From NCBI GenBank assembly GCA_964568735.1, contig CAZMRF010000007.1, positions 15,517 through 79,516 of the forward strand: DNA of 64,000 bases, given 5' to 3'. This DNA comes from an uncultured Acidobacteriota bacterium (lineage in GTDB: Bacteria > Acidobacteriota > Polarisedimenticolia > JACPZX01). Position 1 is the stretch's first letter, and every line of letters begins with the position of its first letter. The notes beneath the pieces were generated by a model. It ran no database searches. It saw nothing but the letters and a program-made list of their open reading frames with translations, and was not told where the DNA came from. Positions 22,913 to 39,803 of this stretch are shown one piece after another. The translations under genes were made by a program, and so were the position numbers.

Positions 22913-22975
22913 GAACTGGCCGACTTCAGGGAGCGGGAGGCGTCGAATGATCCCGATACAACGCAAACGCCGCGC

Positions 22976-23194: not shown

Positions 23195-26100
23195 TCAGGG
23201 CGTGCAGGCCGGCGCGGTGCGAGCGACTCCGTCCGAATCGGGAGCGATGGTCCGGCCGCATCCGTTCCGTGCACCGAGCAGGTAGTAGAAGGCGCTCGAT
23301 GGGATACCGGCATCCATCGACGATGTCGAGGCGACGTTCGCCGCCAGGCAGGTCGCCCCGCCGAACACCGCCCCGTCGCTGCGGAGCAGATCGTAGGTCA
23401 CGGGGGCGGATCCTCCGGGGATCGCGGGGGCAGGCCACGTGAAGAGCGTCGTCGTGCCGCCGCCGGCCTCGAGATCGAGGATCGCGGAGGGCTTCGACCA
23501 GAGCGTGCCGTTTCCCGGCGCGCAGTCGGCGGCGTCGAAGGTACCGTCGAAGTCTGCGTCGCACGTCGGATCGTGCGCCACGAGGATGGGGAAGGGCGTG
23601 CTGGTGATGTTGTTGAAGGCGATATCGTCAATCTCCCATCCCGGAGCCCCGACGGCGATGTCGGTCCCGATCCGGAAGCGGACGCGGACCGTCTGACTCT
23701 GGTAGGCCGTCCCCAGGCTCACCGTCACCGTGTTGAGCGACGGATACCCCGCGCTGACCCCGACGTAGGCCGGCCGGCCTTCGATCGGATTGTTCCCGCC
23801 CGTGACGATGCTCCCGCCGTAGCCGGGCACGGCGGAGGCGCCGATGTCGCTCCACGATGCGCCGCCGTTCGTGCTGATCTCGATGACGCCGCCGTCGAAG
23901 AAGACCGAGGTACCACGCTCGAAGTCATGGCGGTGCTTGAAGGTGAAGCTGAAGCTCCCCGCGGGAGCCACAGGCAGCGGCGGAGAGATCAGCCACACGT
24001 CCGTCGTGCCGCCCCCGTCCGGGCCATGCCAGCGATGATCGAGGCCGCTGAGGGCGATCCGTTCCCAGGGCAGGGAGGCTCCGAGTCCGGGATTGCTCGA
24101 TACCGACCAGACGCTGTTGTCGCTCTCCACGTTGTCGGCAGCCGACTGCGCGGGTAAATCATCGGAATTCACTCTAAATGAAGCACCGCCCGTCAGCGGC
24201 CCCGCAACCGCCAGCCCCGGATCGTCGAAGCTGATCTGGAAGGCTGCCTCCTGGATCGAGACGGCCCCCGAGAGGCTCACGGGGATGGCCGCGGTCGTCG
24301 TTCCGAAGGAAGCGGAAGAGGGAAAGACGACCGAGCCGCCGGAGGGGAAGGCGACGGAGGGGTTCGTGGAGCTGATCATCGCCGTGGTGGAGCTGAGCGC
24401 GGAGCTGCCCGTGTTCCTCAGAGTCAGCGTCAGGCTCCCCGTCTCGCCCCGATCGAGATCACCGTCGGGCAGACACTGAGTCGCCACCCCATCGTCGAGG
24501 AGCACATCCTCGAGGACGAGGTCGCCTCCCAGGAGGTAGCTCTCCACGACACCGCTGTTGGTCGAGGAGTAGCGATCGGGCGCCACGGCTCCGACACCCG
24601 CTCCCCGCTTGGCAAAGGCCTGCCAGAAAACCTGCAGGTCCGCCGCATCCCCGGCGGCAGCGGCCGTCAGGACCGCATCCCGCGCTTCGAGGAGAGTCGG
24701 CGAGTTGGGCGTCATCTTGTAGCCGGCAACGAGGTACTCCTTCATCCTCTGCTGAGCCTGCGCGAAGCTCAGGCGCGGGGAGGGTCCGAGCGTGTCGCGG
24801 AGGAGCCCCGCATAGCACTCCCAGAGCATGTTCGCCCAGATCTCTCCCGTGTTGTGCACCTCGGAGTTGCCCGCGCCCGACTGCCCGAAGGCGAGGGGGG
24901 CCGTGCCCGGAAGCGGCACGCCTTCCTCGATGTGCCGGAAGGTCAGCGGGTTCTTCGCGAAATTCGTCGAGTAGGGCGCCCGCCGGATTCCGAAGTAGTA
25001 GGAGAAAGAGCCCGGTCCGCCCACGGCGTAGCCGGCCAGGGCGTAGACGCCCGAGAAGTTGGGGTTCGCCGGCGCAGCCGCATCCGCCGCGCGCACCGTC
25101 ATCAGCAGCGCGGTGAAGTCGCCCCACCCCTCGCCGAGGCCCGAGGCCATCTGCGTGTCGAGCCCGAAGGCGTTGCCCACCAGCCGGTTGCTGATGTAGT
25201 GGCCCCACTCGTGCGCCACGATCTGGTTGTCGACGGTGCCGTCGCGGTCCACGTCGGAGTCGCGGAAGAGGCGGGCGTTCACCCCGCTCCCGAGGTTGGT
25301 CCTGATCGCGTTTCCGTCGGCCTGGGAGACCATCAACGAGGGCGTCTCCGCGAAGCCCGTGCCGCCCATCGTGATCACGCCCGATGTGTTGTTGACGATG
25401 ATGACGCCGGCGGCGGCGTGGCTCTCCGCGTTCTGGACCTTGACGATGAAATTGCAGGTCCCGCGGTCGATGAGAGCGATCTTCCCGGCGATGGCGGCCC
25501 CGTTGATGAAGGGGAAGGTACATCCATCCGATGGGGTGCCTGCACCATCGTTGACGAGGACCACGTCCTCGGTCACGTCGAAAAGGGACGGCCCGAACTG
25601 GGCCGGCCCGGCCACCTTCGTGCCGGCGATGGAGGGCGGGCTGTTCACCTCGACGAACTGGTTGCTCGGACCATCGAAGATGTACATCTGCATGATCGGG
25701 TTGAAGCCGTCCGGAGGCGTGGACATGTTGGCGTTGTTTCGCCCGGAGAAGTCCTGCCCCTCGGCGAGGAGGAGGTCGCCGCCCACGCCGCCCCTCCCGA
25801 AGTTATTCGCCTGCGCGTTGCCCGAGGCCTCGTCGAAGCCCGCGTCGTAGAACCAGTCGTGGAGCCAGTTGTTGACGTAGAAGAGCTGCGTGATGGAGGC
25901 GCGCCGCTGGTTGGCGGTGGCGCTCGGGGAGAGCGAAGTGTTGTAGACCCTGTCGAAGATTCCCGCCGAGGTCGTCGTGGCCCTCAGGTCTCCCGTTCCG
26001 AAGCCGTCCGGCGAGGCGATGTCCGCGTAGGCGTCGACGTTGTTCCCCAACGACTGCGTCGCCGCGGGCGGCAGCCAGGGGTCGCCCGTACTGATGGGGC

Positions 26101-27154
26101 CGCTCTGGAGCGATATGAGCGGCTGAGACAGGAAGGCCGGCTGGATATCGTCGAGCAGCCCCGTGGGATGCGGCGTCGGATCGAATCCCTGGGGGCCGTC
26201 GTAGGGAGTCAGGCCATTCGGATCCGCCCAGACGCGGTAGGCGTAAACGTCCGACAGGGTGAAATCACGGCGGTAGAGGATGCGGGCGTCGGCCGCGGAG
26301 ATCACGTACCCATAGCTCGCCGACTCCACGCCGTCCTGCGTGCCCAGCCTCACGATGACGTTCCACGCCGGCTCGAGGCCGTCGCCGAGGCGGAACCAGA
26401 CCTTCTTCGCTCCCGCCGGGGCCGCTTCCACCAAGCCAGACGCGGCCTCCGTGCCTTCGTCGAGAGAGAAGAGCCGGAAACCGCCTCGCTGCGCCTGGCC
26501 CGCGGGCCTGAGATCTCCGATGTCAAAGGGGTAGCCGCTCAGATCCGCGAGCGCCGCGGCCACCGCCTCCTCGGAGCGGACCTGGAATGCCGCACCGCGG
26601 CGGATCGGCCGGGTCAGATATCCCGAGATGGCAATCAGGTCACCCTGACGATCCAGCGCGAGCTTCATCTCGTCGCGGAAGACGTCGATCCCATCAACTT
26701 CCTGGGAGAAGGTGACGATCCGCGCTCCCCTTCCCGTGTCATGGACCGATCGGATCTTCAGGCCCGGGATGTCTGCGGGGTCCAGGGCGTAGAGATGCGC
26801 GTATTCCTCGAGGTGCAGGCGTGCGGCCTCGGAAGCGCTCGGCCCGCTACCCGAGCTGACCGACGCAGCCAGCCTCCCCCGCTCGCCAGCCCACAGAAAG
26901 GTCGGCAGGCCGAGACGGGGCTCGTAGCGCGTCTCGGAGCCACGCAAGACGTAGCCTTCGCCGGGAGCGACCCACGCCGGCCGCCCGAGTCCGCGCCGAT
27001 CGGCCGCAAAGGCGTCGTGGGGCTCCCTGGAGAGTCTCCGCGCACCATAGTTCGCGGGAGGATTTGACCTGCGAGCCGAGGCGCCCGCGGGAAAGCCCGG
27101 GACGGTCGAGAGAATGAGAATCGAGAGCGTCATCGCCGCAGTCGTCCGCCTCAT
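23195..27154 (-). CDS. Secreted M36 (fungalysin-like) zinc metalloprotease, tandem paralog (copy 2)
   Basis: ATG 27154 with GGGAGA about 10 nt upstream. Signal MRRTTAAMTLSILILSTVPGFPAGASA. HEWGHYISNRLVGN, GEGWGDF, PA segment GKIALIDRGTCNFIVKVQNAESHAAAGVIIVNN. Collinear with copy 1 throughout; the last ~140 nt are nearly identical at DNA level. Confidence 0.9.
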   Translation of the reverse strand: MRRTTAAMTLSILILSTVPGFPAGASARRSNPPANYGARRLSREPHDAFAADRRGLGRPAWVAPGEGYVLRGSETRYEPRLGLPTFLWAGERGRLAASVSSGSGPSASEAARLHLEEYAHLYALDPADIPGLKIRSVHDTGRGARIVTFSQEVDGIDVFRDEMKLALDRQGDLIAISGYLTRPIRRGAAFQVRSEEAVAAALADLSGYPFDIGDLRPAGQAQRGGFRLFSLDEGTEAASGLVEAAPAGAKKVWFRLGDGLEPAWNVIVRLGTQDGVESASYGYVISAADARILYRRDFTLSDVYAYRVWADPNGLTPYDGPQGFDPTPHPTGLLDDIQPAFLSQPLISLQSGPISTGDPWLPPAATQSLGNNVDAYADIASPDGFGTGDLRATTTSAGIFDRVYNTSLSPSATANQRRASITQLFYVNNWLHDWFYDAGFDEASGNAQANNFGRGGVGGDLLLAEGQDFSGRNNANMSTPPDGFNPIMQMYIFDGPSNQFVEVNSPPSIAGTKVAGPAQFGPSLFDVTEDVVLVNDGAGTPSDGCTFPFINGAAIAGKIALIDRGTCNFIVKVQNAESHAAAGVIIVNNTSGVITMGGTGFAETPSLMVSQADGNAIRTNLGSGVNARLFRDSDVDRDGTVDNQIVAHEWGHYISNRLVGNAFGLDTQMASGLGEGWGDFTALLMTVRAADAAAPANPNFSGVYALAGYAVGGPGSFSYYFGIRRAPYSTNFAKNPLTFRHIEEGVPLPGTAPLAFGQSGAGNSEVHNTGEIWANMLWECYAGLLRDTLGPSPRLSFAQAQQRMKEYLVAGYKMTPNSPTLLEARDAVLTAAAAGDAADLQVFWQAFAKRGAGVGAVAPDRYSSTNSGVVESYLLGGDLVLEDVLLDDGVATQCLPDGDLDRGETGSLTLTLRNTGSSALSSTTAMISSTNPSVAFPSGGSVVFPSSASFGTTTAAIPVSLSGAVSIQEAAFQISFDDPGLAVAGPLTGGASFRVNSDDLPAQSAADNVESDNSVWSVSSNPGLGASLPWERIALSGLDHRWHGPDGGGTTDVWLISPPLPVAPAGSFSFTFKHRHDFERGTSVFFDGGVIEISTNGGASWSDIGASAVPGYGGSIVTGGNNPIEGRPAYVGVSAGYPSLNTVTVSLGTAYQSQTVRVRFRIGTDIAVGAPGWEIDDIAFNNITSTPFPILVAHDPTCDADFDGTFDAADCAPGNGTLWSKPSAILDLEAGGGTTTLFTWPAPAIPGGSAPVTYDLLRSDGAVFGGATCLAANVASTSSMDAGIPSSAFYYLLGARNGCGRTIAPDSDGVARTAPACTP

Positions 27155-27313: not shown

Positions 27314-29161
27314 GTGCCGTGCGGAGCAAGGACGCCCATCTTCCCCGCCAGCCCCGAGACCCGTCGCCCCGCGAGCGCTCCGAGCCTGCGCCCCCATCTC
27401 CTCGTCCTGGCTCTCTACCTCGCGTGGTTCCTGCTCCTCTTCTCCCAGTTCCCGGCTTCGGGGCGGCTGCCCGGCAACATCGACACCTGGTACGCCATCG
27501 CCTTCACGAACAGCTACCTGAACGAGGTCCGTGAGGCCTTCGGCATCGAGAGCTACGGGAGCTTCCTCTATCCCGTCGAGCATCCGCACTCCTACGGCGA
27601 AAGCTCGATCGGCCTCGCGATCGTGCCGATGCTCCTGCGCGCGCTCGGCCTGGGAGACATCGCGGCCTACTACCTCTTCCTCTCCCTCGTCTTCACGGGG
27701 ACGGCCTTCTCGGCCTATCTCGTCGCCACGCTCTACCTTCCCCGGCGCGCTCCTGCCGTGCTCGCCGGCTTCGTGGCGGCGTCGTCGAACTTCATGCTCT
27801 CCACGATCGACAGCCCGCACACCACCTTCTTCGGGATCGCCTTCCTTGCGTTCTATTTTTTCAAGCTCTGGCTCGACTCGGGACGACGCCGTCACCTCTG
27901 CGCCTCGGCGATCCTCGCGGGGATCCAGACATGGTTCTCGGCCTACGTCTTCCTCCTCCTGGGCGTCGCGCTCGCGGTCCTCGTCGCGGCCAACCTGCGC
28001 CAGATCGCGGGCCGGCCAGGCGGGCTTCGAGGCATCGCGCTGCACGTGGCGATGACGGCTGCCCTCGCTTCGCCCTTCTTCGCCTGGTACTTCAGCCACC
28101 TCCAGGGCTTCTACGACTGGCGCTCGCAGGCGGTGCTCTTCGCCGAGTTCAACAGCCTCGACGTGCAGGACTTCTTCAATCCCATGCCAGGCAACCTGAT
28201 CTACCCGGAGGGGCACCGCTTCGACCACGAGGATGCCGTGGCACTCCAGGCGCGCCTGGGCCGAAGTGATCCCTTCTTCTCCACCGAGGAGTTCCAGCTC
28301 CTGATCGGGGCAGCCCCCGAGGCGGGCGAGGAGTCGATGTGGGTCGCTTCGCGGCGACGCGCCTTCATCGGAGTCACCCCGCTCCTCCTGGCATTGCTCG
28401 GAGCCTGGGGGCGCGAACCGGGGAGGCGCGAGCTCCTGGCGCTCCTCGCCGTGGCTGTGGTCCTGGCCCTCGGGCCCGTCGACGTCTTCGGAGGCAGAGT
28501 CGTCCCGATGCCTCTCTACCTGCTCTACGAGCACGTCCCTCTCTTTCACATGTTCCGCATTCCGGGCCGGGCCTTCGCCCTGGGGCTCCTCGCCCTCGGG
28601 GTCCTCGCCGCGCGAGGCCTCGATGGCCTCGTGGAGAAGCTGGCGCCTTCCGCACGCGGGGCTCTCCTCGCGGCCTCGATCGCTTCGTGTCTCGTGGTCC
28701 TCGCCGAGAACGTCCCCGTTCCCATGCGTTCCTTCGAGGCCGCCCGGTGGGCGGAGCCGCCGGCGGAGCTGGTGAGCTTCTTCTCATCGCGGCCGGAGGC
28801 CGTTATCCTCGACCTCCCGAGCGGCATCGGCTACGGCCTCGCGGGGTCGGCGAAGGATCTCAATGTCTTCAACCGTGAGCTCATCTACATGAACTGGCAG
28901 ACCAGGCACGGGGCGACCATCGTGAACGGCGTGAACGGCTACATCCCGGACGAGCGGATAGCGATCCAGAAGCTGATCTCCCGGCTGCCGGCGCCCGAGG
29001 CGGTCGAGGGGCTGGCCCTGACGGGGGTGACGCACATCGTCTTCCACGAAGATCTCGCCCTGCCGGGAGAGGAGCGGCTGCTCCCGGCCCTGCGGAGCTC
29101 TCCCCGCCTCGAGCCTCTCGTCGACTCCGAGGGGACGGTCATCTTCCGGATTCGTTCTTGA
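27314..29161 (+). CDS. Large polytopic membrane protein with C-terminal soluble domain (GT-C-like by topology), paralog A
   Basis: 615 aa, about 10+ hydrophobic helices. Conserved first-loop motif PGNIDTW. C-terminal ..LAENVPVPMRSF..NRELIYMNWQTRHGATIVNGVNGYIP... GTG start; the true start is uncertain. Confidence 0.7.
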   Translation: MPCGARTPIFPASPETRRPASAPSLRPHLLVLALYLAWFLLLFSQFPASGRLPGNIDTWYAIAFTNSYLNEVREAFGIESYGSFLYPVEHPHSYGESSIGLAIVPMLLRALGLGDIAAYYLFLSLVFTGTAFSAYLVATLYLPRRAPAVLAGFVAASSNFMLSTIDSPHTTFFGIAFLAFYFFKLWLDSGRRRHLCASAILAGIQTWFSAYVFLLLGVALAVLVAANLRQIAGRPGGLRGIALHVAMTAALASPFFAWYFSHLQGFYDWRSQAVLFAEFNSLDVQDFFNPMPGNLIYPEGHRFDHEDAVALQARLGRSDPFFSTEEFQLLIGAAPEAGEESMWVASRRRAFIGVTPLLLALLGAWGREPGRRELLALLAVAVVLALGPVDVFGGRVVPMPLYLLYEHVPLFHMFRIPGRAFALGLLALGVLAARGLDGLVEKLAPSARGALLAASIASCLVVLAENVPVPMRSFEAARWAEPPAELVSFFSSRPEAVILDLPSGIGYGLAGSAKDLNVFNRELIYMNWQTRHGATIVNGVNGYIPDERIAIQKLISRLPAPEAVEGLALTGVTHIVFHEDLALPGEERLLPALRSSPRLEPLVDSEGTVIFRIRS

Positions 29162-29264
29162 GCAGTACGGACGCAGCGGGAGATGCGGGGCTGCTACGCG
29201 TGCGTCGGGTGCGAGGCCCGGCTGGATGCATCGGACGCCGCACGACGACCGACGGTAACCGCTT

Positions 29265-31199
29265 GTGACCGAGAGCGACGTTCAGGCCGTGCGCTCGCCG
29301 CGTCTTGCCCTCTGGATAGGCGCAGCCTACGCGCTTTTCTTCTCACTTCTCTTTCTGCAATTCCCTCTCGCGGGCGCCCTCCCCGGGAACTGCGACACGT
29401 GGCTCAACGGGCTGGCCATCCCCAACACGATCCTGAGCCGCGCGCTCGCGGGATTCGATGTCGGGAAGGCCGGGACCTTCTTCTATCCCGAGAGCGCCGT
29501 CTTCGGCTTCGGCGAGTCCGCCTTCGGCACGTCGTCGATCTTCGTGCTCTTCAAGCTGATCGCCCGGAACGACGTGACGGCCTACTACCTCTTCATCGTG
29601 GCGATCTTCACGCTCAACGCGCTCGGGGCCTTCCTGCTCGCCGGCTTCTGGATGCGGGACCGCTTCGCGGCAGCCTTCACGGGGCTCGCCTTCGCGGCCT
29701 CGAACTACACGCTGGGCAACATCGACAGCCCGCACTCCAGCTTCTTCCTGATCGCCTTGCTCGCCCTCTTCTTCCTCGAGAGGCACCTGGCGACCGGGGA
29801 GCGCCGCGCCCTCCTTCTCGCGGGGCTCCTGGGGGGCGCGCAAGTCTGGTTCTCCGCCTACGTATTCCTCTTCATGGGGGGCGCGGCGGCGCTCTTGATC
29901 GTCTGGCACCTCTTGCGCCACGGTCGCGGTGCTTGCTTCGATGCGCGCGCGCTCGTGACCAGCTCCCTCGTTTTCTTCCTCTGCGCAGCCCCATTCTTCG
30001 TCTTCTACAGCCAGGCGCGGCGCAACCCCAACTTCACCAACCCGTGGAACAGCCTCTTCCTGGCAGAGGTGCACAGCCTCGAGCCCTCGGATCTCTTCCG
30101 GACTCTCGAGAACAACCTCCTCTATCCCTTCGACAGAAAGGTCGTCACGGAGGACCTCGCGCGCCGGACGAGATGGATGATGGAGCAGGGCGTCCTCGTG
30201 CCGGAGAGCCTCACGAGCGGCGATGCCGGGATCGTGATGGGGACGCTCTCGAGCCCGGACGACGTCAAGTACTTCGTCTACACGCGCCGGTGCGCCTTCC
30301 TCGGCTTCGTTCTGTACGCTCTCGCCGCCGCGGGCATCGCGACGGCGCGCCGGTGGGAGCTGGTCCTGCTCTTCGCGGTCTCGCTTCTCGTCTCGTTCGG
30401 CCCCTTCATCGAGATCGGGGGCACGCTCATTCCGGGTGCGACCTGGCCCGTCTACAGGTGGCTCGACGCGTCGGGGCTGCTGCGGGTGCCCAGCCGGGCC
30501 TTCGCCTTCGCCCTCCTCGCCGCGGCGCTGGCGGCCGGAGCGGGCCTCGAGTGGATCGCATCGGCGCGCGCGTTCCATGGCTGGTGGCGCCGAGCCGCGC
30601 TCTACGCCCTGGCGAGCCTCGCCCTCCTGGCCGAAAACGTGCCGATGCCGTTGAAGTCCTTCGCCGGAGCGAAGCTCGCGACGCCGGAGCCGGTCGTCCG
30701 CGACTTCTTCGCGGGCAAGCGGGGCCTCGTCCTCCTCGATCTGCCGAGCCGACCCGGAGGTGCCCTCTACGGTGACAGCGGGGACCTCTTCGAGTGGAAC
30801 CGCGAGCTGATCTACATGAACCGGCAGACCTACCACCAGCAGAACATCCTCAACGGCGTGCACGGCTACTTTCCGGCGAGCCGCTTGCGCATGCAGGAGC
30901 TGATCAACGCCCTGCCCGCCTCCGAGGCGCTCGCGGCGCTGAGAGGGGCCGGAGTCGACCACCTCGTCTACCATCACGCCCTCGAGCTGCCCTGGGATAC
31001 AGGGCTCTTCGAGGCCATCTCGTCTGCACCCACACTCCGTATCGAGGCCTCCTCACGCGAGGCGACGATCTTTGGCTGGCGGGAAGCCAAGCCAGCAGGA
31101 ATGGCTCGCGCCCGACCCCCACGAGGAGGCGCCACGGCCTGTGCGATCCCGGCGGCCGGCGTTGCTCCGCGGTCCCGGAAAGCGGGGCACCTCCCATGA
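29265..31199 (+). CDS. Large polytopic membrane protein (GT-C-like by topology), paralog B
   Basis: 644 aa, collinear with paralog A (PGNCDTW; FGESAFGTS vs YGESSIGLA; LAENVPMPLKSF; NRELIYMNRQTYHQQNILNGVHGYFP). Its stop overlaps the next start (ATGA at 31196-31199). Confidence 0.75.
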   Translation: MTESDVQAVRSPRLALWIGAAYALFFSLLFLQFPLAGALPGNCDTWLNGLAIPNTILSRALAGFDVGKAGTFFYPESAVFGFGESAFGTSSIFVLFKLIARNDVTAYYLFIVAIFTLNALGAFLLAGFWMRDRFAAAFTGLAFAASNYTLGNIDSPHSSFFLIALLALFFLERHLATGERRALLLAGLLGGAQVWFSAYVFLFMGGAAALLIVWHLLRHGRGACFDARALVTSSLVFFLCAAPFFVFYSQARRNPNFTNPWNSLFLAEVHSLEPSDLFRTLENNLLYPFDRKVVTEDLARRTRWMMEQGVLVPESLTSGDAGIVMGTLSSPDDVKYFVYTRRCAFLGFVLYALAAAGIATARRWELVLLFAVSLLVSFGPFIEIGGTLIPGATWPVYRWLDASGLLRVPSRAFAFALLAAALAAGAGLEWIASARAFHGWWRRAALYALASLALLAENVPMPLKSFAGAKLATPEPVVRDFFAGKRGLVLLDLPSRPGGALYGDSGDLFEWNRELIYMNRQTYHQQNILNGVHGYFPASRLRMQELINALPASEALAALRGAGVDHLVYHHALELPWDTGLFEAISSAPTLRIEASSREATIFGWREAKPAGMARARPPRGGATACAIPAAGVAPRSRKAGHLP

Positions 31200-32041
31200 G
31201 CCAGATCCGGACCGCGCTCTTCCACCTGAGGCTCTACGAGAGCGGACAGATCCTGGCCCCGGGGCTCTTCGGCATCCTGACCCAGACGCGCCTCCCCTCC
31301 TGGCCGATCCTGATCGCGTACCTGATCGCCTACGCGAGCCACGTCCTTTCGGTCTACTCCTACAACGACTACTGCGACTGGGAAGGCGACTCGCTGAATC
31401 CCCGCAAGACGGAGAGAAGGACGCGGAGCCGGGTGTGGCTGCGGAATCAGACCTTGATACTCACCGTGCTCTTCCTGGCGTCAGTGGTTTTCCTGCCGCA
31501 GGGAGTCATCTCCCTGCTCCTCCTGAGCCAGGTCGTGTGCATGGCCTACTCGGACCCGCGGGTCCGTCTCAAGGGGCTCCTCTTCGGGAGCGAGGCCGCC
31601 CACTTCCTTGTCGGCTACTGCTACTTCATGTCCGGCGTGATCGTCGCGGGTGGGGCCACAGGCCCGAACCTCCTGGGCGGGCTGCTCTTCGGCCTCCTCT
31701 ATGTCTCGGGGGGGACCTTCAACGAGATCATGGACAGTGATCACGATCGAAGGACGAATCTGAAGCACCTGGTCGTCATCGCGGGGAGAGGGCCGATACT
31801 CCGGCTCATCCTGGTGATCCACACGGTCGCCTTCGCCCTCGTGGCGCTCTACGAGCCCACGCCCCTCGTCCTCGCCGCCTGCGCCGTAGGCTTCCTCGCC
31901 TATGCCGCATCCGCGAGGCACCCCTCCCGGATGGAGAGGGATCCCGCCGCGCTGCTCCGTTTCCGGCGGCGCTACCGAATCATCTTCGTCGCTCTTCTCA
32001 TCATCCTCTCAGTCTCCGTCTCGGGACGCCTGGCACTGTGA
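31196..32041 (+). CDS. UbiA-superfamily prenyltransferase / polyprenyl-phosphate phosphoribosyltransferase-like
   Basis: Real start MSQIRTALFHL at ATG 31196; the track start at 30794 lies inside the upstream gene. About 8 TM helices. First Asp-rich motif YNDYCDWEGDSLNPRK (NDxxDxxxD), second IMDSDHDRR. Confidence 0.8.
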   Translation: MSQIRTALFHLRLYESGQILAPGLFGILTQTRLPSWPILIAYLIAYASHVLSVYSYNDYCDWEGDSLNPRKTERRTRSRVWLRNQTLILTVLFLASVVFLPQGVISLLLLSQVVCMAYSDPRVRLKGLLFGSEAAHFLVGYCYFMSGVIVAGGATGPNLLGGLLFGLLYVSGGTFNEIMDSDHDRRTNLKHLVVIAGRGPILRLILVIHTVAFALVALYEPTPLVLAACAVGFLAYAASARHPSRMERDPAALLRFRRRYRIIFVALLIILSVSVSGRLAL

Positions 32042-32117
32042 GTGAAGGTCGACTCTCATCTACAGCGGTTTCCAGTCGAAGTCTCTCGCCTCGGGAAACG
32101 AGATTGATGGCGCATCC

Positions 32118-33935
32118 ATGACGATCGGCAACGCCCCTGAGGAGGTTCGCCGGATCCGCAGGAGCCGGGCGGCGCTCTTCGTCCTGTTCCTGCTGTGGCC
32201 GATCGCTCTCGTGGACGTCAGCGGCCCCTCGATGGCCGATTCGACCCTGCTCGCCGCGATCCGCCTGGTGGATGCGGGGACGTGGACCCTCACGGATCAG
32301 GCCGACCCCGAAACCGTCTTCCGTACGACGGCCTTCGACATCAGCACGCACGACGGGCGCATCTACTCCGGGGTCGGTCCGGGAGCCAGCGTGATCGCCG
32401 CGCTCTGGTATGTGGCTCTCAAGCCGGCCTTCGCCCTCTTCGGCGACGACGTGGTGCGGAACGATCGTGTCCTGACCTACTACCTCCCCAACGCGCGGGC
32501 GCTGGGAGTCGAGCCGCCGGGTCACTTCAAGAAGATGTACCTGCTGCAGATCGCCCTCGTGTGGAGCCTGATGGCTCCGCTCTTCGCGTGGTACCTCGTA
32601 CGCCTCCACGCCCACCTTGGAGCCCGCGGGGTCCCACCGGCCCAGGCGACCCTCACCGTAGTCGCCCTCGGCTTCGGAACGATGCTCCTCTATTACTCCT
32701 CGATGTACTCCCGGCAGGGGCTCGCCGCCCTGCTGGCATGGCACGCCCTGCTGAGTCTGCTGGGCATCACGGGAGGCGGCGGGATCAAGCTCCGCGGAGG
32801 CGGAGCCGAGTTAGGAGCAGGAGTCGCGGTTGACGGCGAAAGCCACGTGCACCGAGGCGAAGGCATCGCAGGAGCGAGAGTCGATGGCAGTGCCGGAGCG
32901 GCTCCCCGTGGCATGACGCTCGTGATCGCAGGGACACTTTGTGGCGCAGCGGTGGCCATCGATTACCCGCTGGTGATCCTCGTCGGGATCTCGCTGCTCT
33001 TCCTCCTGCCTCGACTCGACGGACCCGGCCGCCTGCGTGTCGTTCTTCCCGCCGCTGTCGTGCTCCTTCTGACCGGCCTCTACCACCAGTCCGCCTTCGG
33101 CTCGTTCTTTTCCACCCCCTATCACCATCGCTTCTGGTTTACGCACGATCTGCTGGCCGGAATGGGAGTGGATCTCAGCGCCTTCCAGGAAGGGCCTTTG
33201 CTGGGAATCGGCCTGCCGAGCCCCGCCGTCATCCTCCAGCTCTGCTTCGGCCTCTACAAGGGGCTCTTCGTCTACAGCCCCATTCTCCTCGTCGCGCTCG
33301 TCGGCCACTTCGAGGCGCTGCGCCTGCGCCGCACTTCCGGGCAGGCCCAAGGAAGAGTCAGACGTGACGACGTTGGCGCTGAGTCTGGTGACTTGCCCGA
33401 TCAGCGATCCGCAGGCGCAGCGGTGCTTACGGGTTCGATCGGTGCCCCCCGCTCCCGCGGGGATGCAAGGCTCCACGTCATGAGCCTCGTGATCTTCGGG
33501 GCCTACCTCCTTTTCAATGCCTCCCTTGGCTCCGGCCTGGGCGAGCACGCTCACCATTACTGGGGCGGACTGAGCGGCCTCTGGGGGCCTCGCTACCTGC
33601 TCGTGACTCTCCCCTTCCTGGCTCTTGGTCTGGCCGGACTCGACTGGAGCCGGCGAGCCGTGAGGCTCGCGTGTTTCATTGCCCTCGCCCTCTCGTGCGT
33701 CTTCAACATCCTCGGCGCGATCTTCGCCCGGTCGCTCATGTCGAGCTTCGCATTCGGCTCCGAGCTGCGCTTCCCGCCGGGACACGTGCTGCAGCTGCTC
33801 TTCACCGAGGGGCCGAGGATCACAATCCTCGACGCCTACGGAGCACCGCTGCCCACCCAGGTCCTGCTCCTCGTCACCCTGCTCACCGTTTCGGCATTCC
33901 TCCTGCGTACGAGCCTGAAACCGCCAATGAACTGA
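32118..33935 (+). CDS. Large polytopic membrane protein with Gly/Arg-rich loops (possible GT-C-type glycosyltransferase)
   Basis: 605 aa with many hydrophobic helices (..ALFVLFLLWPIALV.., ..MYLLQIALVWSLMAPLFAWYLV.., ..LFVYSPILLVALVGHF.., ..RYLLVTLPFLALGLAGL..) and two low-complexity loops. Same strand as, and 76 nt after, the UbiA gene. Confidence 0.65.
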   Translation: MTIGNAPEEVRRIRRSRAALFVLFLLWPIALVDVSGPSMADSTLLAAIRLVDAGTWTLTDQADPETVFRTTAFDISTHDGRIYSGVGPGASVIAALWYVALKPAFALFGDDVVRNDRVLTYYLPNARALGVEPPGHFKKMYLLQIALVWSLMAPLFAWYLVRLHAHLGARGVPPAQATLTVVALGFGTMLLYYSSMYSRQGLAALLAWHALLSLLGITGGGGIKLRGGGAELGAGVAVDGESHVHRGEGIAGARVDGSAGAAPRGMTLVIAGTLCGAAVAIDYPLVILVGISLLFLLPRLDGPGRLRVVLPAAVVLLLTGLYHQSAFGSFFSTPYHHRFWFTHDLLAGMGVDLSAFQEGPLLGIGLPSPAVILQLCFGLYKGLFVYSPILLVALVGHFEALRLRRTSGQAQGRVRRDDVGAESGDLPDQRSAGAAVLTGSIGAPRSRGDARLHVMSLVIFGAYLLFNASLGSGLGEHAHHYWGGLSGLWGPRYLLVTLPFLALGLAGLDWSRRAVRLACFIALALSCVFNILGAIFARSLMSSFAFGSELRFPPGHVLQLLFTEGPRITILDAYGAPLPTQVLLLVTLLTVSAFLLRTSLKPPMN

Positions 33936-33944
33936 CTCAGGCTG

Positions 33945-34265
33945 TCACAAGCGCCGCCGCGAGGCTCGTCTCTGTTTCCAACTCCCCCGGCGGAGCTTGA
34001 ACCCACCGCGGTTCTTGTAGACAGTGAGGACCGCATCGCCGTCGGGAGCGACGATCACGTGTATCCCCTTCACAGCTTCGAGGCTTGGATCCCGAGGCGA
34101 GCCGCGAGAGGCTCTTGTCCTGAGTACGACGAAGTGTCGGGCACCCCGCTCACGGATCATTTTTCCATGACGAAGGACGGCTTCGATTTCTGGCTCGGAG
34201 ATGCGCCGTCGGCACATTCGCTCGCGCGCATGGCCGGAGAATCTGAAGGACCGCGTGTTCCTCAT
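33945..34265 (-). CDS. DUF4258-like putative toxin
   Basis: 106 aa. ..FSGHARERMCRRRISEPEIEAVLRHGKMI.. matches the H-A-x-x-R-M-x-x-R-x-I signature of DUF4258 as I recall it. Lies in the lower-GC islet downstream of an RHH protein. Confidence 0.6.
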   Translation of the reverse strand: MRNTRSFRFSGHARERMCRRRISEPEIEAVLRHGKMIRERGARHFVVLRTRASRGSPRDPSLEAVKGIHVIVAPDGDAVLTVYKNRGGFKLRRGSWKQRRASRRRL

Positions 34266-34371
34266 CGCTTCACCTCGAGTTCGCTCCGTGATCCATGGGG
34301 CTCACAAATTCGGGCCTCGCACGCTCGCGAGACCGGTATGGATAAGAGAGTTGATGCATGTCATTGCTGCC

Positions 34372-34890
34372 TCAGGAGCTCGGATCCACTGGCTTAGGAA
34401 GATCGGCTCGGTCAGGTGCGAGGCGAGACTCGCAGGCTTCTACGATCAGATTCAGGAAGTCGCTTCCACCAAGCCTGGCCGCCGAGCGGAATGTCTCGAG
34501 CTCCTCAGCCGACAGCTCGGCGGTGTACGCCTCGGCGGGGTATGTGTCGTTGTCGGCAGCAAACTGATCCGCGAACTGCTCGAATGTGAGGTCCTCCAGA
34601 CCACTGTCCTCGTGGGGAATCCGCACCCCGATCTCGACCTTCACGAGCTGCCTGGCGATCCGTTGCGCCAACCCGCTGAAATCGAACTTGGTTCGGGTGG
34701 CTGTATTGATGATGTGAGCTGACTTTTCGAGCGCGGCGATGCGGATGAGGTTGGATGGTGTCCAGCCTTTTAGGTCGGCAGCCTTCACGACGCGCTCGCG
34801 CTGCTCCTCGGTCAGCCTCGTGCTGAAGGTGACAGTTTCACCTTCGGGTTTGGGCTCAATCGTCTGTCGGGACCTCTTTCTCCTGGGCAT
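34372..34890 (-). CDS. RHH-type DNA-binding protein with long acidic C-terminal extension (putative antitoxin)
   Basis: 172 aa. ..VTFSTRLTEEQRERVVKAADLKGWTPSNLIRIAALEKS.. has the CopG/DUF1778-like ribbon-helix-helix pattern. About 100 extra C-terminal residues are rich in D/E. Sigma70-like promoter and palindrome lie upstream. Confidence 0.6.
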   Translation of the reverse strand: MPRRKRSRQTIEPKPEGETVTFSTRLTEEQRERVVKAADLKGWTPSNLIRIAALEKSAHIINTATRTKFDFSGLAQRIARQLVKVEIGVRIPHEDSGLEDLTFEQFADQFAADNDTYPAEAYTAELSAEELETFRSAARLGGSDFLNLIVEACESRLAPDRADLPKPVDPSS

Positions 34891-34935
34891 CTGGGGTCTC
34901 CCTGCGTTTCGGTGTCAGGTTCAGTGCAATGTTTA

Positions 34936-34961
34936 CTATTGAAAGCACTACTTGTCAATAG
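34936..34961. promoter_or_regulatory. Inverted repeat (candidate operator) overlapping a TTGACA box upstream of the RHH gene
   Basis: CTATTGA (34936-34942) and TCAATAG (34955-34961) are 7-bp arms 12 nt apart. On the minus strand TTGACA (complement of 34953-34958) is followed 17 nt later by TAAACA. Confidence 0.35.
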
Positions 34962-35078
34962 AAATCCTTGCATTCGTCCGCCTCTTCCGCGTTAGGGCCA
35001 CTAGTCCTTTTTAATGAATACTTTACGGGTGGCCTTCTAGGCTCTTCGGTTCCCAGGGGCACTCGACTAGCGCCTTGT

Positions 35079-35107
35079 TTGACCATCAAGTGGAAACGTT
35101 GTACTAT
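35079..35107 (+). promoter_or_regulatory. Sigma70-like promoter for abiEi-abiEii
   Basis: TTGACC (35079-35084), 17 nt, then TACTAT (35102-35107), about 38 nt upstream of the abiEi ATG, in an AT-rich intergenic stretch. Confidence 0.5.
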
Positions 35108-35145
35108 TTATCCTGAACATTTAGTACCATGGAGATGCGTCATCG

Positions 35146-35724
35146 ATGCCCCCTCCCAGCCGACCCACTCTCGAGCCCGGCAAGGTCTACCGGACGAGCG
35201 ACCTCGCAGCCTGGGGCCGAAACCCGTCCAGGCTCGCGAAGCGTCTCGAGCGTGAAGGGGTCCTCGTCCGACTGGCACACGGGGTCTTCTTGCATCCGCG
35301 ACAGAGTCGCTTCGGCTCGGTGCCGCCTGACGACGATTCTCTGATGCGCTCGTTCCTGGGCGGAGCGCCATTCGTGATGACAGGCCCGGAGCGCTGGAAC
35401 CCGCTCGGACTCGGATCGACTGCAGTCTTCCCTGCTCGGCTGGTTTACAACACGAAGCGCTCGGGAGAATTCACCCTGGGCGGGCGGCGGTTCATCCTGC
35501 GCCGCGTGAGCTTCCCTGAGAACCCCACACCCGAGTGGTCAGTGGTGGACCTCCTCGAGCACTCCGACGTGGCCGGAGTGTCGAGGGCGGACCTTGAGGC
35601 GAACCTGGCGCGAGCCATCGCCACACGCCGCTTCACCAGCGAGGCACTCCAGCAGGCTGCTCGGCAATACGGGACGCGGAAAACGCGGGATTTGATCGAT
35701 CGCGCAGCGGAGAAGGCTGCTTGA
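35146..35724 (+). CDS. abiEi: AbiEi-family antitoxin/transcriptional regulator (type IV TA)
   Basis: 192 aa. N-terminal wHTH-like ..GKVYRTSDLAAWGRNPSRLAKRLEREGVLVRLAHGVFLHP... TTGA overlap with the downstream AbiEii gene. Confidence 0.7.
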   Translation: MPPPSRPTLEPGKVYRTSDLAAWGRNPSRLAKRLEREGVLVRLAHGVFLHPRQSRFGSVPPDDDSLMRSFLGGAPFVMTGPERWNPLGLGSTAVFPARLVYNTKRSGEFTLGGRRFILRRVSFPENPTPEWSVVDLLEHSDVAGVSRADLEANLARAIATRRFTSEALQQAARQYGTRKTRDLIDRAAEKAA

Positions 35725-36677
35725 GTTTCGTTCACGACGATTCCGAGTTCGGGGAACTCCTCCGGATCGTCGCGAGCGACTCAGGGTTGAGCAACGCCCT
35801 CGTCGAGAAGGACTACTGGGTGACCCACTCCCTGTGGGCCATTCAAGAGACGAAGCTTGAGGTCTGGCTCAAGGGGGGAACTTCGCTCTCGAAGGGGTTC
35901 GCGCTCATACAGCGATTCTCCGAGGATCTTGATCTGCGAATCGAGCCCGGAGCGCAACCGGGAGTCCCGGCGGTCAAGAGTTGGAAGAGCGCGAACAAGG
36001 GTCCGGTCTCTACGCGCCGCGCCTTCTACGAAGCCATCGAGCGAGTCATCGCTATCCCGGGTGCACCGCTCGAGCTCGATCCGGACAGCATCGACAAGCA
36101 TGCACGCGGTGCGAGCTACCGGGTCCGCTATCCCGGCAAGTTCACCGATGAGCTTCACCCGGACATGCGTCCGTTCGTGCTACTCGAGATCGGCACGGCG
36201 CGCGTCACCCCGTTCGTTGAACTCACGATCAGCTCACTGGTCCACGACTGGCTCAAAGGCCACGATCGAGACGCTGACTACGAGGACAACAGGCCGAAAA
36301 CCACGAGGTGCACCCACCCTCTCGTGACGCTTGTGGAGAAGGCCGACGCCATTGTCCGCCGTCATGCTCACGGAAGGGAGCCGGCGTCCTACATTCGGCA
36401 CTATGAGGACATGGCCCGCATCATACAGAAGAGAAAGCACCTGCCCGCGCTCGAAATCAATACGGCAGATCTCGTGCAGGACATGGTTGCACAAGGGCAA
36501 GTCCACGCCATCCCCTCGCCCGATGACCCTGCATTCACCCTTGCCGACGCAGACAGGCGGGCTGAGCTCTTGAAGGCGAACGATGCGATCACCCCGATGT
36601 TCTGGGGCGAGCGTCTATCGTTCGGCGCTGCATGCAGGATCGTCCGCGAATGGCTTGATACGCTGCCGCGGCAATAG
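35721..36677 (+). CDS. abiEii: AbiEii/AbiGii-family nucleotidyltransferase toxin (DUF1814)
   Basis: 318 aa. ..EKDYWVTHSLWAI..WLKGGTSLSKGFALIQRFSEDLDLRI.. is the canonical NTase G-S-x(n)-D-x-D core of the family. Confidence 0.85.
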   Translation: MSFVHDDSEFGELLRIVASDSGLSNALVEKDYWVTHSLWAIQETKLEVWLKGGTSLSKGFALIQRFSEDLDLRIEPGAQPGVPAVKSWKSANKGPVSTRRAFYEAIERVIAIPGAPLELDPDSIDKHARGASYRVRYPGKFTDELHPDMRPFVLLEIGTARVTPFVELTISSLVHDWLKGHDRDADYEDNRPKTTRCTHPLVTLVEKADAIVRRHAHGREPASYIRHYEDMARIIQKRKHLPALEINTADLVQDMVAQGQVHAIPSPDDPAFTLADADRRAELLKANDAITPMFWGERLSFGAACRIVREWLDTLPRQ

Positions 36678-36691
36678 TCGGGTGGAGCACC

Positions 36692-38026
36692 TCACTCCTC
36701 CCGGGGCATGTTGGCGAAGATGACGCGGCGGGCGAGGAGCTCGCGGTAGAAGACGAGGGCCTTCAGGGCGAAGGAGGTCGTCTCGGCGCGGGAGCCGTCG
36801 TAGTAGCGGGCGGTTCCGGGTGAGGCGAGGGCGCGCTCGACGTCGTAGGCGACGCCGCCCCTCAGTCTGGGGATCGCGAAGCCCTTCCCTTCCACGAAGG
36901 CCTTGAGCGCGTCGTGGTTGACCTCGTACTCGTAGAGCGGCCCCGGATCCCAGGATCCGTCCACGATCCGGCGCTGGGCCAGCTCCCTCACGAGCGGATC
37001 CAGCTCGCGGCAGGGCTGGGCGTCGAGGAGGCACAGGTGGCTGCGGGCCTTCACGAGCGCGGCCAGCTCCAGATTGTGGAGCTTCGATTCCGCGCCCGGA
37101 GCCGGTGCCGCGAGATCCCCGAGCAGCTCTGCGAGCACCTCCTTCGCATCCACGGCGCCGTGCTCGACGGCGTTCGAGGCGAGGCAGGCGAGAATGGGCA
37201 GCGAATGATAGAAGGGGCTCTTCTCCCAGTAGCGCTCCCGCTTCATCACCTCGCGCAGACTCTCCATGAGCCCGGAGCGCTCCAGCTCGTACTTGCCGAA
37301 GAATCCGAGGACGTTCAGGTTCACGCCGAGCGAGGGAGGGTTCGGATCGGGCACGAAGCCCTTCTCGCCGTGGAAGCCGTCGAAGTAGGTCCGGTAGAGT
37401 CCGCCGGGGGCCCGGTGCTCGTCGAAGAGCGCGCGCAGCTCCGCCGCCGCCTCGCGCGAGAGCGGCTGCCTCCCCCCCAGGACCATGAGCGCCACCGCCG
37501 TGTCGTCGGAGTCAGGCTCGAAGAGCCGATCTCTCCCGAAGCGGCCGGGCTCGTAGAGGGACCACGTGTTCCTCGGACCCATCCGTCCCTTCAGGTACTG
37601 CGCGCCGCGGGCAAACGTCTGCGACGCCTCGAAGCCCGTGTGTGAGAGGTTCATGAGGACCATCGCCGTCCCGAAGAGGCGCGCGTGCGGCTCCGGCTCC
37701 GCGAAGTCGGGGCTGCGGCTGTGGAAGTAGTCCCACGAACCGTCCTCCGCCTGCGTCGAGGCGAGGAAGGCTCCCGCCTCTTCGATATAGGCGTCCAGGG
37801 GGCTCCCTCCGCCGCCTGCCGCTGCGGGAGGCTTCGCGGCGCCGCCCTGAGGCGGCTGCGCCTGGCCGCCACCCTGGGGGGGCACGCCAGCGGGAGGGCC
37901 GGGGACGCGAAGCCCCGAGCCGCCTGTCTCGCCCGCCGGGGCCTCCTCTCCCTGACCGGCGCACGAGGCGAGGCAGATGGCGACGAGGGAGATGATCAGT
38001 ACGCGGGAGTCAGTGAAGGGGCGCAC
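36692..38026 (-). CDS. Lipoprotein with prenyltransferase/terpene-cyclase-like alpha-alpha toroid repeats
   Basis: ..AFLASTQAEDGSWDYF.. and ..QRRIVDGSWDPGPLY.. are PFTB/SQHop-cyclase-type repeat signatures. Lipobox ICLASCAG. I place the start at GTG (complement of 38024-38026; VRPFTDSRVLIISLVA..). The track start at 38182 would overlap the divergent gene. Confidence 0.6.
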   Translation of the reverse strand: MRPFTDSRVLIISLVAICLASCAGQGEEAPAGETGGSGLRVPGPPAGVPPQGGGQAQPPQGGAAKPPAAAGGGGSPLDAYIEEAGAFLASTQAEDGSWDYFHSRSPDFAEPEPHARLFGTAMVLMNLSHTGFEASQTFARGAQYLKGRMGPRNTWSLYEPGRFGRDRLFEPDSDDTAVALMVLGGRQPLSREAAAELRALFDEHRAPGGLYRTYFDGFHGEKGFVPDPNPPSLGVNLNVLGFFGKYELERSGLMESLREVMKRERYWEKSPFYHSLPILACLASNAVEHGAVDAKEVLAELLGDLAAPAPGAESKLHNLELAALVKARSHLCLLDAQPCRELDPLVRELAQRRIVDGSWDPGPLYEYEVNHDALKAFVEGKGFAIPRLRGGVAYDVERALASPGTARYYDGSRAETTSFALKALVFYRELLARRVIFANMPREE

Positions 38027-38082
38027 GGCGCGGGCGATGCTAGCATAGCTCCTCACGTGCCGATCTCCGCGGACCCTCCGGC

Positions 38083-39738: not shown

Positions 39739-39803
39739 GTGAAACGCCGAGATTCTGAGCCGATACCGCGACCAGCGCCTCCCTCATCGCTCCACTCCAG
39801 CCG

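Follow-up and report, generated by a model that had tools for sequence, protein, structure and literature searches.

Within a 64,000-nucleotide stretch from an uncultured Acidobacteriota bacterium (GenBank assembly GCA_964568735.1, contig CAZMRF010000007.1, positions 15,517 to 79,516; hereafter the window), we analyzed a locus that encodes a membrane enzyme of the UbiA superfamily among large polytopic membrane proteins. Two of these, A and B, are by structural modeling members of a large, unnamed family of GT-C-fold membrane proteins, and a UbiA gene is the conserved partner of this family across many phyla. Our preferred reading, which we hold tentatively and rate somewhat below an even chance, is that the locus builds a lipid-linked glycoconjugate at the outer face of the cytoplasmic membrane, and that UbiA contributes to it by classical prenyl transfer and not by transferring phosphoribose.

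The core of the locus consists of four genes on the plus strand: A (27314–29161, 615 amino acids) and B (29265–31199, 644 amino acids), the two polytopic proteins of what we call the A/B family; the UbiA-superfamily membrane enzyme (31196–32041, 281 amino acids, Pfam PF01040); and D (32118–33935, 605 amino acids), which represents a second polytopic family with a predicted GT-C-like fold. Window G+C is about 68%, and third-position GC, which marks all four open reading frames as coding, ranges from 0.80 to 0.88 across A, B and D, typical of coding DNA. A preliminary description of this DNA, made from the sequence alone, had called A and B paralogs, and BLASTP bears this out (36% identity over ~590 residues, E ~1e-90). 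The motifs it had singled out are also there: LPGNIDTW in A and LPGNCDTW in B within the first loop, and the C-terminal blocks LAENVPxPxxSF and NRELIYMNxQTxH...NGVxGYxP in both proteins. They coincide with alignment columns that do not vary among 30 homologs (G41, N42, D44, T45 and W46; N512, R513, E514, Y517, N519, Q521 and T522). The stop codon of B overlaps the start codon of the UbiA gene in an ATGA (31196–31199), as had been noted, which couples the two genes translationally, and the reported 76-nucleotide gap (32042–32117) separates UbiA from D. ARAGORN calls a 79-nucleotide tRNA-Arg(cct) on the minus strand within the 3′ end of gene B (31049–31127); we regard this as a probable false positive, given that no Rfam tRNA is found there even at E ≤ 10 and that its fold is no better than those of shuffled sequences (z −0.6).

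Sequence comparison places the large proteins in no established family, in keeping with the preliminary description, which could assign them to none. No Pfam, NCBIfam or PDB sequence match exceeds threshold, and A, B and D reach the cut-off of no named GT-C family (PMT_2, PTPS_related, YfhO, STT3, ArnT and others). The best Pfam match of A is a weak one to PTPS_related (PF10131, E 0.002, under cut-off); 15 representatives of the A/B family have no Pfam or NCBIfam match, and the family profile finds no sequence match among PDB chains. We predicted the structure of B with AlphaFold2 from a 30-sequence alignment and compared models to the PDB using Foldseek. The model of B is of high confidence (predicted local distance difference test [pLDDT] 89.4, predicted template modeling score [pTM] 0.90) except in its last ~35 residues. 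It yields 19 matches at E ≤ 1e-3, all of them GT-C proteins, with probability 1.00 and template modeling (TM) scores of 0.34–0.52. They include STT3 of the yeast and human oligosaccharyltransferases (3e-6), ArnT (4e-5), DPY19 (4e-5) and AftA (2e-4), as well as ALG12 and PglB; matches to AftD and the Emb proteins fall just short of the same threshold. No other fold is matched below E 0.1, and transporters appear only at E > 0.1 with probability <0.2. The GT-C glycosyltransferase fold that had been suspected is thus predicted for B, and A would qualify as a GT-C-fold protein through its 36%-identity homology to B.

Conserved residues agree with this assignment. GT-C enzymes carry a catalytic acid in the loop that follows transmembrane helix 1, and Asp44 of the PGNxDTW motif, in the first periplasmic loop of B, is invariant in the 30 sequences. 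In A, LPGNIDTW likewise falls in the first loop, following transmembrane helix 1, and the protein ends in a periplasmic α/β domain; the membrane topology of B and D was deduced from positive charges before the first helix. The WWDYG motif is absent from the translations of A and B, and their conserved C-terminal block instead reads NRE[LI][IV]YMNxQT.

The family to which A and B belong is extensive. Clustered at 50% identity, an exhaustive profile search returned 306 clusters at E ≤ 1e-30, a number that rises to 2825 at E ≤ 1e-10; A itself matches the family hidden Markov model (HMM) at 2.8e-221 and is 59% identical to its ortholog in one of the loci described below (L005). Remote members sit in ordinary glycan clusters, beside sugar-nucleotide genes and small glycosyltransferase family 2 (GT2) proteins of the AglJ/ArnC/PpgS type, related to the GT2 of the same type found in locus L003. 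Because remote members adjoin such genes, the A/B family very probably uses polyprenyl-phosphate sugar donors, and the context fits genuine transferases dependent on them.

Word-indexed searches recovered ~40–55 homologs each for B, UbiA and D, all unnamed, and we mapped 60 loci of relatives (numbered L001 onward), obtained from contig look-ups and two collection scans, with the family HMMs. The metagenome-assembled genomes (MAGs) behind these loci are assigned to Acidobacteria/Polarisedimenticolia, Myxococcota, Bacteroidetes, Epsilonproteobacteria, Pseudomonadales, Halobacteriovoraceae and Bacteriovoracaceae, Sumerlaeota, Spirochaetales and Vulcanimicrobiota. A UbiA gene lies at most 100 nucleotides from an A/B gene in ~30 loci and 1.4–4.6 kb away in two more. 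The loci with this pair represent no fewer than nine groups of phylum level and span Acidobacteria/Polarisedimenticolia, Myxococcota, Bacteroidetes, Pseudomonadales, Halobacteriovoraceae/Bacteriovoracaceae, Vulcanimicrobiota and others. Eight loci with sufficient flank have no UbiA gene near the A/B gene. In a set of 126 genes that neighbor A/B genes, drawn from 18 loci, UbiA leads the Pfam families with 13 members and is the only recurrent one; the others reach four at most, and GT2 accounts for two. The 25 commonest of the 134 Pfam families in this neighbor set include neither a MATE or SMR flippase nor a HAD or PAP2 phosphatase, and GtrA flippases and DprE2-like genes do not recur in it either. 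Pfam likewise detects no MATE/SMR flippase or HAD/PAP2 phosphatase family among the locus genes of the window. In MAGs of Sumerlaeota and Spirochaetales, a polytopic protein of ~300 amino acids overlaps the end of the A/B gene (L019:3688–4593, L020:2083–2994, L021:9971–10858); its copies are 39–51% identical and have no Pfam, NCBIfam or UbiA similarity.

Gene order, too, is kept beyond this genome. The arrangement A-B-UbiA-D, continued by genes for a phosphodiesterase-family protein, the membrane protein E548 and an Lgt-like protein (all described below), recurs in L004 (88% identity) and L005, and parts of it in L007, L009 and L032. D follows B or B-UbiA in L001, L004, L005, L006, L009, L030, L032, L033, L035–L037, L039, L041, L049 and L050. 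In L001, L030, L036 and L037, B, D and the Lgt-like gene are contiguous. We considered that B-D-Lgt loci such as L001 and L006 might have lost UbiA, and rejected this: the same contigs carry an A/B-A/B-UbiA-toroid set ~10 kb away. The contigs of L001, L030 and L037 hold A/B-A/B-UbiA at that distance (L047, L040 and L042). Between the two A/B sub-loci of L001/L006 (~2600–9973 in locus coordinates) lie three more unannotated genes of 534–542 amino acids, a methyltransferase gene, a flippase-like LPG_synthase_TM gene and an AglJ/PpgS-like GT2 gene, and the whole is a much larger "supercluster" of unnamed membrane proteins. On the L001/L047 contig, GT2 and the flippase-like gene share a supercluster with a UbiA-toroid gene; in L003 and L058, GT2 and UbiA both adjoin the A/B gene.

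The preliminary description had confined the locus to the four core genes. These are real, and the locus runs on past 33935 to 42235 with four more conserved genes. The coherent locus, probably one for the envelope, spans 27314–42235 and is interrupted by an AbiE toxin-antitoxin insertion. A stretch of lower GC content (34000–36700; 0.60 versus 0.67–0.69) splits it between D and the next conserved gene, X496. This stretch contains the two halves of a type IV toxin-antitoxin pair, AbiEi-like (35146–35724) and AbiEii (35721–36677), and an open reading frame without assignment (34201–34722); a sigma-70-like promoter match lies at 35079–35107. In L004, which is most closely related, the insertion site holds the AbiEi-like gene (81% identity) and no AbiEii.

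X496 (36692–38182 as the maximal open reading frame, minus strand, with the real start probably at ~38026–38056) encodes a predicted lipoprotein with an α/α-toroid domain: a lipobox (...LVAICLASC) and a Gly/Pro/Ala-rich linker are present, together with the QW-like motif FLASTQAEDGSW. A profile of the domain built from eight homologs matches squalene-hopene cyclase (1gsz, 8e-15) and lanosterol synthase (1e-5) in the PDB, and the DSDDTA of X496 aligns with the catalytic DVDDTA of the cyclases. Among X496 relatives, the acid motif takes the form D-x-[DE]-[DT]-T-[AV], with variation at the fourth position (DADTTA, DIETTV). The domain measures ~380 residues, and its six partial matches are scattered over the 631-residue cyclase. 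Orthologs of X496 occur in L004, L005, L009 and L032. An X496-like domain follows the last transmembrane helix of UbiA in frame on four independent contigs (L011, L040, L042, L047), and on two others it is joined to the C-terminus of a third A/B paralog (L007, L031). Since relatives fuse the domain to UbiA or to an A/B paralog, X496 belongs to the same module. The Arg-rich loop before the last UbiA helix would put the toroid of the fusions in the periplasm, in agreement with the predicted export of X496 as a lipoprotein in the window, and the UbiA-toroid fusions suggest chemistry on an isoprenoid tail and not the transfer of phosphoribose.

The three remaining genes are on the plus strand. The first (38083–39738) encodes a 551-residue protein of the alkaline-phosphatase superfamily, within the type I phosphodiesterase/nucleotide pyrophosphatase family (PF01663, 5e-31). 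Its N-terminus resembles a lipoprotein signal peptide (...AAASAPGC), which makes it probably an exported periplasmic lipoprotein, and orthologs occupy the same position in L004 (92% identity), L005 (60%) and L007. The second, E548 (39804–41450), encodes a polytopic membrane protein of 548 amino acids that has no Pfam, NCBIfam or PDB match. It carries an invariant FPTEDGYLMLTVARN segment after the first transmembrane helix, a feature that resembles GT-C enzymes by sequence alone; orthologs are present in L004 (82% identity) and L005 (53%). The stop codon of E548 overlaps the start of the third gene (41447–42235), whose 262-residue product scores 156.7 bits against the Lgt family (PF01790, cut-off 24.9) and remains under both equivalog cut-offs (TIGR00544, 85.2 versus 118.9; NF000778, 101.6 versus 334). 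We classify it as a member of the family and a divergent Lgt paralog. Its gene is translationally coupled to E548 in the window and directly to D in sister genomes. Consensus scans for promoters and terminators found nothing above shuffled sequences except a terminator-like hairpin (42260–42275) just after the Lgt-like gene, between convergent genes.

For D, the evidence for a GT-C fold is weaker than for B. The AlphaFold2 model (pLDDT 85.6, pTM 0.88) has only GT-C proteins as its best Foldseek matches, as had been surmised, at E 8e-3 to 0.1 (ALG9, 7.7e-3; ArnT, 9.4e-3; Pmt4; EmbC), with probability 0.9–1.0 and TM scores of 0.31–0.46; transporters stay below probability 0.2. Asp74, in the first periplasmic loop, is invariant in 33 homologs, and D has no large soluble domain. 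Its best NCBIfam match is a weak one to the putative glycosyltransferase family LA_3751/LA_3752 (3.6e-7, under cut-off), and neither the family profile nor the single sequence matches a PDB chain. Comparison by hhalign detects no relation between D and the A/B proteins, so we treat them as two sequence families; all pairings of E548, D and A/B give probabilities of 0.1–9%, as three unrelated sequence families would. D contains two Gly/Ala/Arg-rich low-complexity insertions (residues ~221–262 and ~428–470, pLDDT <50). They are confined to the window and its nearest relative (P0089), and the other 31 homologs measure ~500–530 amino acids.

The 281-residue protein is a UbiA-superfamily member, as first described. 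PF01040 scores 72.5 bits against a cut-off of 34.2, aligning residues 20–253 to profile positions 2–243 of 250, and the previously reported NDYCDWEGD and DSDHD lie in two intact Asp-rich motifs (N57-D58-Y-C-D61-W-E-G-D65 and N176-E177-I-M-D180-S-D-H-D184). Both motifs and the Tyr/Lys/Arg positions are kept across 21 close homologs of 50–90% identity. The protein also carries YSxPxxRLK; YSxPxxRxK aligns with YSAPPRFK of AfUbiA. We based its placement on the scores of curated models. The best NCBIfam matches are generic archaeal-type prenyltransferases (PRK12875, 5e-12; PRK13105, 5e-11), with ubiA_other and BchG also found; the generic archaeal-type models align over the full length at 42–45 bits, far under their cut-offs (45 versus ≥205). 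An analogy to Rv3806c, the decaprenylphosphoryl-ribose 5-phosphate (DPPR) synthase of mycobacteria, had been drawn, and the sequence does not bear it out. Against NF008977, the model for DPPR synthase, the protein scores 21.6 bits where 234 are required, and the alignment covers only residues 46–118, with the first Asp motif. When we searched all PDB chains (E ≤ 10) with a profile built from 22 members of the family, the only matches were ApUbiA (4od4, 2e-7) and AfUbiA (4tq3, 2e-5); the Rv3806c structure (8j8j, cited in PMC11127046) is not among them, assuming that the 2026 PDB copy includes it. The UbiA sequence by itself matches no PDB chain. Twelve other A/B-linked UbiA proteins from other phyla have PRK12884, PRK12875 or digeranylgeranylglyceryl-phosphate synthase as their top model, and never DPPR synthase. 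By these scores, the UbiA protein belongs to a distinct clade on the classical prenyl-diphosphate side and is not a DPPR-synthase ortholog. None of the three outcomes that the preliminary description had named as refuting it (a UbiA protein firmly inside a quinone, heme or chlorophyll prenyltransferase clade, large proteins lacking a GT-C fold, or a gene order confined to this genome) is found outright.

UbiA-family genes vary in number and form among relatives. Several loci have two or three around the A/B genes (L016:3552–5093, minus strand; L023:432–1832, plus strand; L012:116–2095 and 6469–7302), and extended forms include one of 513 amino acids with a ~270-residue N-terminal extension and one of 466 amino acids with a C-terminal extension. 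In L024, a B12-binding radical SAM gene lies between the A/B gene and UbiA.

These parts can be assembled into the glycoconjugate pathway that we favor. UbiA, at the cytoplasmic face, would act as a classical prenyl-diphosphate-using transferase and make an anchor or acceptor, namely a polyprenylated lipid or head group. After translocation, the toroid would bind the isoprenoid tail, or protonate and cyclize it, without a cofactor. A, B and D, and perhaps E548, would then act as GT-C enzymes and glycosylate the head group, with polyprenyl-phosphate sugars as donors; the small GT2 that makes them is assumed to be encoded elsewhere in the genome, and in sister genomes such a GT2 is found in the same cluster. 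The alkaline-phosphatase-family lipoprotein and the Lgt paralog may trim or lipidate components. The extracytoplasmic parts (the GT-C proteins, the toroid, the metal phosphatase-family protein and Lgt) can all work without nucleotides, which fits a periplasmic assembly line fed by a UbiA reaction at the cytoplasmic face. We prefer this prenylated-acceptor reading because of the sequence placement of UbiA, the toroid fusions, the lack of a conserved flippase, phosphatase or epimerase, and the presence of GT2 together with UbiA in L003, in L058 and on the L001/L047 contig, which fits separate donor and acceptor roles. The earlier idea of a lipid-linked-sugar system for an envelope glycan hence survives in the association of UbiA with GT-C enzymes and in the conserved order, and finds no support in its DPPR-type synthase step.

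Several observations weigh against the prenylated-acceptor reading. Many A/B-linked UbiA proteins outside the clade of the window have lost part of one Asp-rich motif (L003, L012, L013, L016, L017, L022–L024, L051, L053, L057 and L058). Altered forms read N-[SA]-x-x-G-x-x-x-D in L003, L012, L013 and L022–L024 and NDWGG in L058; the second motif is degenerate in Bdellovibrionota copies, and a second motif of the form S-x-x-x-D-x-x-x-E occurs among sub-clades. Such loss is awkward for any simple catalytic model, the donor-synthase reading below included, though both motifs are intact in the clade of the window. Only loci of the Acidobacteria/Myxococcota type have the toroid, which therefore cannot explain the A/B-UbiA pairing in other phyla. 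The Foldseek E-values of D are only ~1e-2. No GT2 or flippase gene is found within the 64-kb window, which is why the donor source has to be assumed. To our knowledge, no characterized system combines these parts, and we know of no precedent for a class II terpene-cyclase reaction in the periplasm.

A bolder version, which we consider improbable, regards A/B-UbiA-toroid as an unrecognized pathway in which a UbiA-made lipid would have its tail cyclized in the periplasm without a cofactor and be glycosylated by a new GT-C family, giving a polycyclic isoprenoid glycolipid that serves the envelopes of Acidobacteriota and Myxococcota as a functional analog of hopanoids; in many other phyla, A/B and UbiA on their own would yield prenyl glycolipids of a simpler kind.

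The alternative that fares best, doubtful in our view and nevertheless a serious contender, would have UbiA make the donor. Like DPPR synthase or the polyprenyl phosphoribose synthase (PPPRS) of Citrobacter and Pseudomonas, it would transfer a sugar phosphate, for example from phosphoribosyl pyrophosphate, to polyprenyl phosphate, and the product, once flipped and perhaps dephosphorylated by the alkaline-phosphatase-family lipoprotein, would serve as donor for A, B and D. UbiA-type synthases working with GT-C enzymes have precedents in Rv3806c with Aft/Emb and in PPPRS-MATE-GT136 (PMC11127046, PMC10994848). The pairing of remote A/B members with a small GT2, and of the window's subclade with UbiA, looks like a swap of the donor-making partner; the window contains no other donor synthase, and among the conserved genes of the locus is one for a probably periplasmic lipoprotein of a phosphatase family. 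Yet the scores against NF008977, the PDB profile search and the 12 other linked UbiA proteins all speak against a synthase of this kind, as does the lack of a recurring MATE, SMR or GtrA flippase, HAD/PAP2 phosphatase or DprE2-like neighbor. UbiA is no simple replacement for GT2, since L003, L058 and the contig of L001 have both, and a donor synthase gives no rationale for the fusion of UbiA to a cyclase-like toroid.

A gene in the window that might have completed such a donor pathway encodes a flavin adenine dinucleotide (FAD) oxidase (16447–17925, plus strand; FAD_binding_4 and ALO domains) with the lipoprotein signal peptide MRSVSKQFLIGLVIWLAAASC. It lies 9.4 kb upstream of the locus and is followed by a gene for a polytopic DUF6962 protein (18112–18768, plus strand). 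The preliminary description had reported no DprE1/DprE2-type gene adjacent to the locus; none adjoins it, but the oxidase has the domain order of DprE1 and matches the DprE1 model weakly over its full length. We rejected it as the missing DprE1 of a conserved system on three grounds: the match reaches only 61.5 bits against a cut-off of 500, the FAD domain is closer to sugar-lactone oxidases, and the gene is absent from the 10-kb flanks of the relatives' loci; we retain it as a lead only. This want of conservation near the locus also counts against donor synthesis by UbiA. The exception is L003, where a weakly related FAD_binding_4 gene lies two genes after UbiA.

We give little credence to the idea that the UbiA-like partner is mainly no synthase but a subunit of the GT-C enzyme that binds or translocates the lipid carrier, one that would present or flip a polyprenyl-phosphate-linked donor as GtrA, MATE or SMR proteins do in three-component systems. 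The many linked UbiA proteins that lack one or two of the catalytic-motif Asp residues would suit it, as would the different, non-UbiA polytopic protein that takes the place after the A/B gene in Sumerlaeota and Spirochaetales, and L003 and L058, with GT2, A/B and UbiA, have the gene count of a three-component system with no other flippase. The window's clade, however, keeps all canonical catalytic residues in 21 sequences, which argues for enzyme activity, and we know of no UbiA-superfamily member that is a flippase. It is just as improbable that the A/B proteins modify exported proteins, notably the lipoproteins of the locus, in the manner of oligosaccharyltransferases or protein O-glycosyltransferases, with the Lgt paralog supplying the lipid anchor. 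In favor of this, B has STT3 subunits and PglB among its best structural matches, its C-terminal domain weakly matches that of AglB (3vu0, probability 0.82), both locus arrangements show translational coupling of an Lgt-family gene to GT-C-like genes, and two to three locus proteins have lipoprotein signal peptides. Against it, the C-terminal domain lacks WWDYG, TM scores of only 0.37–0.50 mean that the preference for STT3 over ArnT, DPY19 and AftA may reflect size, Lgt and the lipoproteins are restricted to loci of the Acidobacteria/Myxococcota type when A/B-UbiA pairs reach much further, and the proposal is silent on UbiA.

Other genes of the window surround the locus. Upstream and divergent from gene A, on the minus strand, lies a tandem pair of M36 metalloproteases of the fungalysin type that have PA and FTP propeptide domains (18953–22966 and 23195–27154; 1319–1337 amino acids, 70% identical). 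We rejected them as locus members: they are on the opposite strand and were not seen in the 8-kb upstream flank of L005, a relative with enough upstream sequence. Downstream, also on the minus strand, are genes for a secreted 330-residue protein that falls in no known family (42269–43261) and a protein with a lipase-chaperone domain (43258–44535); this pair is syntenic with L001, L030, L036 and L037 and for that reason may belong to the wider neighborhood. Three large Ser/Thr protein kinases with PD40 β-propeller or tetratricopeptide repeats are encoded at 2–2530, 8769–12989 and 54517–57048, all on the minus strand, as would suit a genome of the Myxococcota or Acidobacteriota kind.

GT-C enzymes build many bacterial envelope glycans. 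New GT-C families are still being founded, GT136 as recently as 2024 (PMC11127046), and our analysis delimits a large candidate: hundreds of 50%-identity clusters with a predicted GT-C fold and no Pfam, NCBIfam or PDB sequence relative. It also shows for A/B a dedicated UbiA-type partner in many phyla, most of which are known only from metagenomes; we found no description of this pairing in the literature searched. Either phosphosugar transfer arose twice in the UbiA superfamily, or prenyl transfer is coupled in a different way to periplasmic glycosylation, and the UbiA-toroid fusions offer a concrete and cheap experimental entry point. The locus has no obvious medical relevance; its importance lies in the annotation of Acidobacteriota and Myxococcota from soil and sediment and in the reading of their lipid biomarkers.

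Among characterized proteins, the toroid most resembles class II terpene cyclases (squalene-hopene and oxidosqualene cyclases), with which X496 shares QW-type repeats and a D-x-D-D-T-A at the catalytic position. Unlike them, it apparently comprises a single toroid of ~380 residues, which is either predicted to be exported as a lipoprotein or joined to UbiA or A/B at their periplasmic end. By sequence, the UbiA protein is closest to ApUbiA (4od4), AfUbiA (4tq3), digeranylgeranylglyceryl-phosphate synthase and chlorophyll synthase, which align over most of its length and have both Asp-rich motifs and YSxPxxRxK in common with it; it differs in scoring far below their family cut-offs, and no pairing with a GT-C protein or fusion to a cyclase-like toroid is known for any of these enzymes. 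With GtrA/GtrB/GtrC and ArnC/ArnT systems, remote A/B members share the adjacent small GT2, sister genomes share a GT2 and a flippase-like gene in the cluster, and ArnT is a top structural match for both B and D, whereas the window's subclade has UbiA, not GT2, as its constant partner.

The mycobacterial decaprenyl-phospho-arabinose pathway (Rv3806c, Rv3807c, DprE1/DprE2, Emb and Aft proteins) likewise has a UbiA gene beside GT-C genes and several GT-C paralogs per locus, and its AftA, AftD and Emb proteins are among the structural matches of B and D. It is set apart from our locus by the latter's want of specific similarity to Rv3806c, of a PAP2 phosphatase and of DprE2, by a sole DprE1-like gene that is distant (9.4 kb), weakly matching and unconserved, and by lineages other than Actinobacteria. 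Closest in layout is the three-component pentofuranose system of Citrobacter youngae O1/O2, in which the polyprenyl phosphoribose synthase ORF15, 31% identical to Rv3806c, works with the MATE flippase ORF14 and the GT-C protein ORF12 of CAZy family GT136 (Kelly et al. 2024, PMC11127046). Both encode a UbiA-superfamily enzyme with a GT-C transferase that bears an extra periplasmic domain, and the expected logic is the same: the cytoplasmic face would make a lipid-linked substrate and the periplasmic face would carry out the transfer. In contrast to ORF15, the UbiA protein here is not DPPR-synthase-like; no HAD phosphatase domain, MATE flippase or epimerase accompanies it, and the toroid, the alkaline-phosphatase-family lipoprotein and the Lgt paralog are found only here. 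GT136 ends in a β-rich carbohydrate-binding module (PMC11127046) and B in an α/β domain, a different domain order. As judged from its sequences, the locus falls outside the DPPR/PPPRS systems and every named GT-C family of Pfam and NCBIfam; it appears to work like a lipid-linked periplasmic glycosylation system.

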